From contig OZ024740.1 in assembly GCA_964016885.1 (NCBI GenBank), positions 52,514,001-52,578,000 of the forward strand: a DNA stretch of 64,000 nucleotides, written 5' to 3'. This document shows, piece by piece, positions 22,484 through 23,476 of this stretch. A model generated the notes under the pieces. It saw only the letters and a list, made by a program, of their open reading frames with translations. It searched no databases and was not told the DNA's origin. Both the position numbers and the translations under genes were made by a program. Origin of the DNA: Eledone cirrhosa (taxonomy: Eukaryota). The number at the start of each line of letters is the position of its first letter. Within the stretch, counting starts at the first letter, position 1.

Positions 22484-23476
22484 CACTATCCTTTTCACAA
22501 GTTGAATGAAAGCTTAAACTATGTCAACTTTAACTCTAACCACCCCAGATCTGTCAAAAACACTATAGTAAACTCAGTCCAAAAACGTATCTCTAGGATC
22601 TCGTCGAATAGAAAGATTTTTGACGAAAAGGCCCAATACTATAATGATGCACTAGCTAGGGCAGGGTATGCTGATAAGATTGTATACATAGATAATGATA
22701 GACAAACTAAACAAAGTAACAACTTTTTTAATTACGGCAACAACATTAACAACTATAATAGAAAGCATTACAATAATTCCAAAGGACAAAAAAGAAATAG
22801 AACTAGGAACATAATTTGGTTTGCCCCCCCTTTCTCACTAAACATTAAAACCCACATCGCTAAATTATTTTTCAAAGCTCTTGATAATCGCTTCCCTGGA
22901 ACACATAGGTGTCGCTCAATCTTCAATGGGCATGCAATTAAATTGGCCTGCTCGTCCACCAAAGGTTTGGCACAAAATATTAATGGAATAAATAGTGGGA
23001 ACTTGAAACCTACTGATAATAGCATAAATAATATACAAGTTGACAGATGTAACTGTGGAGATGGATCTGGGTGTCCGTTAGGTAACAACTGCTTGGTTGA
23101 AAATATAGTATACGGTTGTGGTGTTGATACTGACTCTGGTTCTTTTGACTGCGTCGGTTCCACATCGACGGAATTTGAACTTCGCTATGGTAACCACGGG
23201 AATTCTTTCACAGATCCAAATAAAGGATCTTCGGCGGCACTATCAGGGGTGCTCTGGCAACTTGGGCTAGATAACGTTGGATATTCGACGGCTTGGAATG
23301 TGGTCTCAGGGGGGATTCCTTTTGATTCATCCTCTGGGACATGTGACCTCTGTGCAGAGGAGATGTTCTTTATACTAAGATCTAAAAACTCCCTTAACCT
23401 ACGGACAAATTTGTTCAGTTGTTGCGGACATGGATTAAACTCAACGTTTGAATATAAATTTAGATTTAAAATGTAG
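22484..23476 (+). pseudogene. PLE RT thumb + GIY-YIG, open frame but apparently A-to-G hypermutated
   Basis: SNHP, YYNDALARAGY, WF(A)PPFS, CNC..CPL..NCL, IVY, (C)(V)G, CDLC, LN; homologous to 10798-11874. Confidence 0.9.

Follow-up and report, generated by a model that had tools for sequence, protein, structure and literature searches.

In the 3.0-Gb genome of Eledone cirrhosa, a 5'-truncated Penelope-like element (PLE) very probably preserves an RNA that was hyper-edited by ADAR and then written into inherited DNA, as judged from a sequence comparison with its sister copies. The window, i.e., the whole stretch of 64,000 nucleotides analyzed (OZ024740.1, 52,514,001-52,578,000; positions given below are those of the window), contains this insertion at 21340-25269, where an inverted arm is joined to the main copy and TA arrays are present on both sides. 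The features of the insertion and its flanks are as follows.

17353-21339, no strand: left-flank (TA)n target array
21340-22483, minus strand: inverted 5'-truncated arm corresponding to element 24017-25176, with the short 3' end, without tail and with edits as in the main copy
22484-25269, plus strand: main 5'-truncated copy of the putative Hydra-type PLE, with the long 3' end and tail
22484-23476, plus strand: truncated ORF, from codon 408 to the stop of the 737-aa family ORF, with RT thumb region, CxCX5C linker and GIY-YIG endonuclease; the RT catalytic core is absent
22484-22897, plus strand: unedited 5' zone, with 1 A>G among 163 As, at 22512
22833-22838, minus strand: GTGAGA word at the shared upstream edge of editing, considered a lead only
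22898-25134, plus strand: hyper-edited tract, with 163 A>G sites showing ADAR neighbor bias
23105-23158, plus strand: GIY-YIG motif region, IVY...CVG (IVY...YVG in sisters), with the second Tyr changed to Cys at 23151
23477-25176, plus strand: 3'UTR and also pLTR, which in full-length copies is found ahead of the ATG
24017-25176, plus strand: right arm of the inverted repeat, inside the 3'UTR/pLTR
24145-24160, plus strand: 16-nt tandem duplication including edited Gs, in the main copy only, the inverted arm being without it
25065-25135, plus strand: hammerhead-like motif (CUGAUGA core at 25076, stem II, GAAA), recognized by eye
25177-25269, plus strand: tail that distinguishes the long 3' end from the short one, with 0 of 34 As edited
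25273-28009, no strand: right-flank (TA)n target array

A search with window positions 22480-23520 gave 40 listed matches of 2747 candidates, and the best 29 other copies were compared. Over 22484-23518, the window differed from each of these 29 copies by 64-67 A>G changes and by 0-5 other differences, and in the case of four of them (L004-L007) the difference amounted to 65 A>G and nothing else. With L005 as gapless comparator, 64 of 231 As had changed to G in 22898-23484, in contrast to 1 of 163 As in 22484-22897 (binomial p = 7e-22), and 42 amino-acid changes and 8 silent changes resulted. When the full insertion (22484-25290) was compared with 11 real copies, 164 sense-strand A>G changes were detected together with a single other fixed substitution, located in low-complexity sequence. 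The changes within 22898-25134 correspond to 163 of the 722 As of 22898-25290, and 9 of 581 31-mers were common to unedited copies and the window. The clustered sense-strand A>G change postulated in the preliminary description is borne out by this spectrum, in which near-identical sisters show almost nothing else. Its extent, given there as 22823-23434, had to be revised, as the actual tract (22898-25134) extends across the 3'UTR and has its counterpart in the inverted arm at about 21382-22357, where ~70 T>C changes were observed on the plus strand when compared to sister copies. An edit-free patch at 24233-24347 (0 of 32 As) is private to the window; a family-wide gap of editing at this place was rejected, all 10 other edited copies then compared being edited there. 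Similarly, the G at 22512 was rejected as a donor mark, since 4 other copies of the 40 listed have this G and yet show 47-69 other substitutions.

At the protein level, an excess of glycine had been noted from WFAPP onward, and indeed 24 Gly were counted there in the window versus 3 in L005, while the part before WFAPP is normal (3 Gly in the window and 3 in L005) and the frame stays open. Some of the residues cited at that time belong to the family and are not edits, namely R in RFP, R in THR, D in CGD and V in CVG, as sister copies read RFPRTHRY, CNCRD, YVG and CKHR. Likewise, the reported damage to the YIG motif applies to the Tyr, which became Cys, and not to the Val. The caveat regarding the homolog within the window (ORF 10798) was appropriate, as it belongs to a separate family with 32% amino-acid identity.

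The sequence context of the edited sites was determined from their immediate neighbors. In the ORF part of the window copy, 34 of 76 As with a 5' U were edited, as were 22 of 92 with a 5' A, 6 of 37 with a 5' C and 2 of 26 with a 5' G; for As followed by G the value was 17 of 30, and for UAG 12 of 17. Over the whole tract, editing affected 8 of 82 As after G (p = 0.003) and 89 of 325 after U, 31 of 73 As before G (p = 9e-5) and 47 of 322 before U, and 21 of 40 UAG, so that the 5' G depletion and 3' G enrichment proposed as signs of ADAR were both observed. Pooled over 16 events (see below), edited fractions were 122/979 (5' G), 871/2755 (5' U), 308/782 (3' G) and 526/2690 (3' U), and the per-site rates by 3' neighbor amounted to 0.39 for G, 0.31 for A, 0.26 for C and 0.20 for U. 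The context found in the window agrees with the hyper-editing motif in the accessible part of PMC4365171. According to the portion of PMC5625713 available, 5' G depletion is universal in hyper-editing and the downstream preference is for G in vertebrates and for A in invertebrates; in contrast to this invertebrate pattern, G leads A in the present case.

Further edited copies were searched for in the genome with degenerate motifs demanding G at hot sites, for which reversed controls gave 0 matches. Edit motifs matched 10 times at element position 23041, 13 times at 23798, twice at 22440 and 3 times at 24371 (both window arms plus one other); the motif at 24312, with no mismatch allowed, gave 0 matches in the genome. 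All 16 non-window loci obtained from the motif searches are hyper-edited (16/16), with 42-186 A>G each. L144 and L145 have all 41 edits in common and were counted once, and the genome scan called for in the preliminary description therefore yielded 16 more copies and 15 further events, or 16 events with the window included. Both L144 and L145 are located on C5, 216 kb apart, with an identical 5' cut and within TA arrays, and they may represent one event duplicated in DNA, re-transposed, or doubled by the assembly. For all other pairs, edit sets differ between copies (Jaccard ≤0.44). Edited copies span 3-4 subfamilies that are up to ~6% apart, and the events lie on at least 7 sequences. Edited matches at position 23041 were distributed 5/5 on the two chromosome strands, the change tracking the sense strand of the element. 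Pooled ORF columns gave A>G at 1060/2950, T>C at 33/2291, G>A at 20/969 and C>T at 44/1310, with 16 A>T and 13 A>C. Thus, neither a G>A cluster of the APOBEC type nor a DGR-type change of A to all three other bases was encountered. A genome search with the mirror T>C motif, as expected for antisense editing and performed without a positive control, gave 0 matches.

A fully degenerate motif at 23041 had 1174 matching places, a number that counts arms instead of insertions and exact matches only. The two main motifs are both covered by 12 known edited copies, of which 10 were found with one motif, 8 with the other and 6 with both; capture arithmetic from these two motifs leads to a total of about 13 edited copies, corresponding to ~1% of copies. 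Edited loci were compared by local alignments, since BLAST on purine-collapsed sequence gave overlong matches and left 3 of 10 edited loci undetected. L144/L145 apart, no daughters of any edited copy were present among the compared loci. L097 has an edit-free patch at element positions 23200-23400 (0 of 64 As) that is private to this single molecule. Eight of the 16 edited events are 5'-truncated within the edited zone at 22906-23513 (L078, L080, L081, L085, L141, L143, L144, L087), four of them in 22906-22976, counts that are biased by the motifs used. Truncations inside the edited zone could arise if RT halts on RNA that is rich in inosine or double-stranded.

The family has two 3' ends, a short one (25176) and a long one (25269). 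Its head-to-head pairs usually combine one short and one long end, and pairs with arms of 2.5-3.6 kb are common. In the window, the arms 21340-22483 and 24017-25176 are 1.5 kb apart and identical but for the 16-nt indel, with 71 edited sites in the part common to both. When the arms of six usable copies were compared, 127 edits were shared and 5 were discordant, the shared edits being 61 in the window, 38 in L078, 20 in L081, 4 in L143, 3 in L084 (where only 3 of 5 edits are shared) and 1 in L141; different copies compared at the same columns showed sharing of ≤0.30. In L081, the long copy stops at the short end (25176) and the short arm bears the tail, and a tail on the short arm that is absent from the long copy was found in L084 and L141 as well. 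The overlap of the L081 arms comprises 751 nt, identical save for 1 substitution and 1 gap, with 20 of 20 edits shared. Each arm of L081 holds sequence that the other lacks, and therefore neither can be a complete copy of the other. Also, in a hairpin each strand would be edited on its own, which would give T>C in one arm. The simplest reading, drawn mainly from this one copy, is that two primings occurred on one RNA from two start points. This reading fits the available text of PMC11167929, in which both strands are cut, and then extended, by PLE protein, and the tail is delimited by two start sites of RT. The edits would then serve as natural barcodes for the formation of inverted structures and tails of PLEs, a question named as open in the accessible part of PMC8557442.

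Also, the positions at which editing begins were compared. Eight events reach upstream of 22815, and in six of them the first edit occurs at 22840-22898, namely at 22840 (L142), 22841 (L086), 22847 (L083), 22874 (L079 and L082) and 22898 (window). The exceptions are L084, in which editing begins at 22417, and L097, which was found by the upstream motif and is edited from its 5' cut. Edit rates of the six events were 2/542 As in 22600-22814, 10/89 in 22837-22873 and 56/181 in 22874-22960, and the edge could lie anywhere inside an A-free run at 22815-22836. That several subfamilies have this upstream edge in common favors a defined antisense partner over donor hairpins of separate origin. Apart from the GTGAGA at 22833-22838, the antisense strand of the ORF has no GTRAG word; the arms that include this site all retain it (52 of 52), and it had been flagged before the comparison with L142 revealed the first edit of that copy. 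The antisense strand carries many AATAAA words. An antisense splice acceptor at the edge was unsupported, ranking 36 of 78 by pyrimidine content, and one donor hairpin setting the edge was rejected because L091 (arm cut 22812) and L092 (22867) are not nearest relatives of any edited copy and because 3-4 subfamilies have the same edge.

On the 3' side, editing fades and does not stop at a sharp duplex end. A GTAAGT at element position 24729 (antisense) is a perfect donor-like word that is kept in most arms; it was rejected as a sharp editing edge, about half of the copies being edited past it. The unpaired tail as a sharp 3' edge was weakened as a candidate, since the 60 nt preceding it show hardly any editing either; the true tails of 13 copies contain 5 G in ~430 As, 3 of those representing one subfamily variant. 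A small cluster of edits at element positions 25125-25135, on the 3' strand of the hammerhead-like stem, was present in L144, L078, L080, L081, L097 and the window, and as it is edited even where its neighbors are unedited, it is possibly a local cis substrate. In some animals, ADAR is known to act on paired sense and antisense RNA, according to the part of PMC9989829 available. PLEs retain introns, as stated in the accessible text of PMC8557442, which suggests a nuclear template where ADAR acts. Matches to the deaminase domain PF02137, which may represent ADAR, ADAD or ADAT, occur at 4 places in the genome.

An artefact of assembly or sequencing, e.g., the use of edited RNA reads for polishing or a base caller that errs systematically, is a very unlikely source of this pattern. 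Clustered mismatch artefacts do occur in trace data, as described in the accessible part of PMC2873906. However, the 16 events on at least 7 sequences each have a different edit set, the change follows the sense strand of the element on both chromosome strands, identical edits are present in window arms 1.5 kb apart, and there are unique junctions as well as older edited copies that have diverged (L084 arms). It is known that DGR reverse transcriptases misread adenines, and a 3' G enrichment could also stem from dislocation-type errors. Mutagenic reverse transcription or skewed dNTP pools, where PLE RT or second-strand synthesis would misread adenines with no deaminase involved, might thereby explain the 3' neighbor bias, and only ~1% of insertions are affected. 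Still, we consider this highly improbable in view of the excess of A>G (1060) over A>T (16) and A>C (13), the 5' G depletion, the same changes in the separately synthesized arms of L081, and the shared upstream edge with 2/542 As edited before it. Deamination at the DNA level, either by ADAR on the DNA strand of an RNA:cDNA hybrid or by a tRNA-type deaminase on single-stranded DNA, is hardly conceivable: although ADARs can edit DNA within hybrids in vitro (PMC12925331, available part), editing of the cDNA strand predicts sense T>C copies, of which none was found with the mirror motif, and editing after synthesis would make the arms differ, whereas they match.

Another view accepts ADAR editing and attributes the match of the arms to fold-back on cDNA, to gene conversion after insertion, or to an already edited genomic donor. 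We judge this unlikely, though it deserves some weight, as the window arm is wholly contained in the main copy, which is compatible with cDNA fold-back, and duplication of an edited copy is exemplified by L144/L145. Copying of one arm from the other is at odds with the tails carried by the short arms, and absent from the long copies, of L081, L084 and L141 and with the 16-nt duplication with edited Gs in one arm only, and none of 17 loci proved to be an edited donor with a common edit set. The view put forward in the preliminary description, that the template RNA was hyper-edited prior to its reverse transcription, agrees with the pure A>G change, the neighbor bias, the 16 edit sets, the lack of T>C mirrors and the edits shared by the arms.

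Spectrum, context and extent of the A>G changes, the arm-shared edits and the recurrence in independent copies were observed directly, and the following course of events would account for them. The transcript of a young Hydra-type PLE would pair over a long stretch with RNA antisense to the element, and about a quarter of its adenosines, between about 22898 and 25134, would be turned into inosine by ADAR. For insertion into a (TA)n array, the PLE protein would use that single edited RNA as template, with inosine being read as G, and would prime twice, from 25269 and from 25176, to give two truncated cDNAs head to head. As both arms would have been primed on one edited RNA, both carry the same edits. 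The insertion would then have been inherited. A broader reading, which we offer tentatively and regard as possible rather than probable, is that PLE RT works on nuclear ADAR-marked RNA that is routinely copied twice from two start sites, as the source of head-to-head insertions; that ADAR is directed to the endonuclease half by a defined antisense RNA with its end, or a splice site, at 22838; that ~1% of new germline insertions, including full-length copies with open frames, are recoded by about a hundred edits in one step; and that the genome is a dated archive of single germline ADAR substrates. Edits of host RNAs carried by the PLE machinery could then become fixed in this way as well.

One of the two Tyr of the GIY-YIG motif is Cys in 5 of 10 edited copies scored, and also in L142. 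In an anole PLE, mutating the second GIY-YIG Tyr abolished cleavage, according to the accessible part of PMC11167929. L079 (4670-8537) and L142 are full-length edited copies with open frames (748 and 749 aa, respectively, from stop to stop), in which about a hundred A>G are restricted to the 3' part and Cys replaces one Tyr of the GIY-YIG motif in each case. The idea that ADAR acts as an anti-PLE mutator is speculative: L079 and L142 do lose this Tyr, but the window copy is dead anyway because it starts at codon 408 of 737 and has no RT core. With ~1% of copies edited, mutation of inserted copies by editing would be a minor brake. The further idea that PLE RT makes RNA edits heritable can be upheld for the element's own RNA only, a germline origin being suggested by the presence of edited copies in the assembly and by the diverged arms of older ones (L084).

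The window family was tentatively filed as Hydra-type PLE by its motifs and has a unit of ~4.05 kb. An intact sister (L038 2722-4935, minus strand) contains a single ORF of 737 aa, with YRDD followed by a C-terminal IVY..YVG, as read by eye. In the family ORF, DKT replaces DKG (SDKTNN), the CxCX5C linker is CNCRDRSKC, CxxC and CxH are present (CDLCAEE, CKH), and RWR is found where the RWK motif of the Hydra clade is expected. Insertion into (TA)n was also seen at the ends of sister copies. In Pfam, 0 of 4 proteins matched, and the intact L038 protein was without match at E 0.01, while 149 homologs were obtained for it at 1e-10; the nearest named homologs are from Argonauta hians (36-39% identity), and a homolog search with the edited ORF gave none at 1e-20. 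Rfam applied to the hammerhead-like region gave 0 matches to a ribozyme and AT-repeat noise only. The family resembles the Hydra clade of PLEs, as presented in the available part of PMC8557442, in its C-terminal GIY-YIG, DKT, CxCX5C, CxxC/CxH, (TA)n targets, inverted 5'-truncated arm and tail; it differs from it in the unit, generally <3 kb in that clade, in the tail (~93 nt versus 30-40 nt) and in RWR instead of RWK.

Other elements are present in the window. A further young PLE family, which has these motifs as well, is represented at 9500-12890 (plus strand), and a first look gave 1267 candidates for it, with top copies 98-99% identical; its window copy is frameshifted near 10717-10801 and unedited. 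With the one edit motif searched for this second family, without a positive control, 0 edited copies were found. A fragment of a third related PLE is located at 15337-16052 (minus strand; 65 aa align with the family ORF at 52% identity). Open frames recognized by eye resemble the end of a Penelope/Poseidon-type GIY-YIG domain (87-500, plus strand) or LINE endonuclease or RT fragments (48807-49750, 51259-52200, 60289-60757 and 60947-61916, all minus strand).

RNA edits normally vanish with the RNA, and here single hyper-edited molecules appear to be kept in chromosomes. They point to an action of ADAR on the templates of retrotransposons within the germline lineage and provide a per-molecule record of duplex position. 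Repeat annotation at normal identity overlooks such copies, which could pass for old or divergent subfamilies. In a literature search that covered few subscription papers and no supplements, neither a report of germline-fixed ADAR-edited PLE or LINE copies nor one of both PLE arms deriving from one RNA was found, and the accessible part of 10.64898/2026.07.22.740005 contains nothing on germline-fixed ADAR-edited PLE copies.

Among known systems, Penelope RNA of lizards is massively hyper-edited (PMC5625713, available part), which likewise marks PLE transcripts as major ADAR substrates; that account deals with RNA reads only, and its accessible text describes no reintegration. For Drosophila Penelope, rearranged inverted copies or bidirectional transcription lead to long dsRNA, as may be the case here, but that pathway ends in Dicer products and siRNA, and the available portion of PMC3681739 makes no mention of editing. 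ADAR1 also meets a non-LTR retrotransposon RNP in the restriction of LINE-1, which according to the accessible parts of PMC5224506 and PMC12925331 is independent of editing, whereas here editing is recorded in the inserted DNA. Endogenous retroelements edited by APOBEC3 resemble the present copies in that hypermutated copies are preserved and detected against unedited sisters (PMC2873906, available part); however, the change is the opposite one, G>A on the plus strand, and occurs on cDNA and not on RNA. Another similar system is that of the avian retroviruses, in whose proviral DNA, according to the available text of PMC12925331, clustered A>G changes of the ADAR type affect up to half of the adenosines, are linked to an inverted repeat and are fixed by reverse transcription. 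Those viruses are exogenous and their tracts short, whereas in E. cirrhosa a non-viral retrotransposon carries tracts of 2.2 kb in many independent chromosomal copies of one genome.
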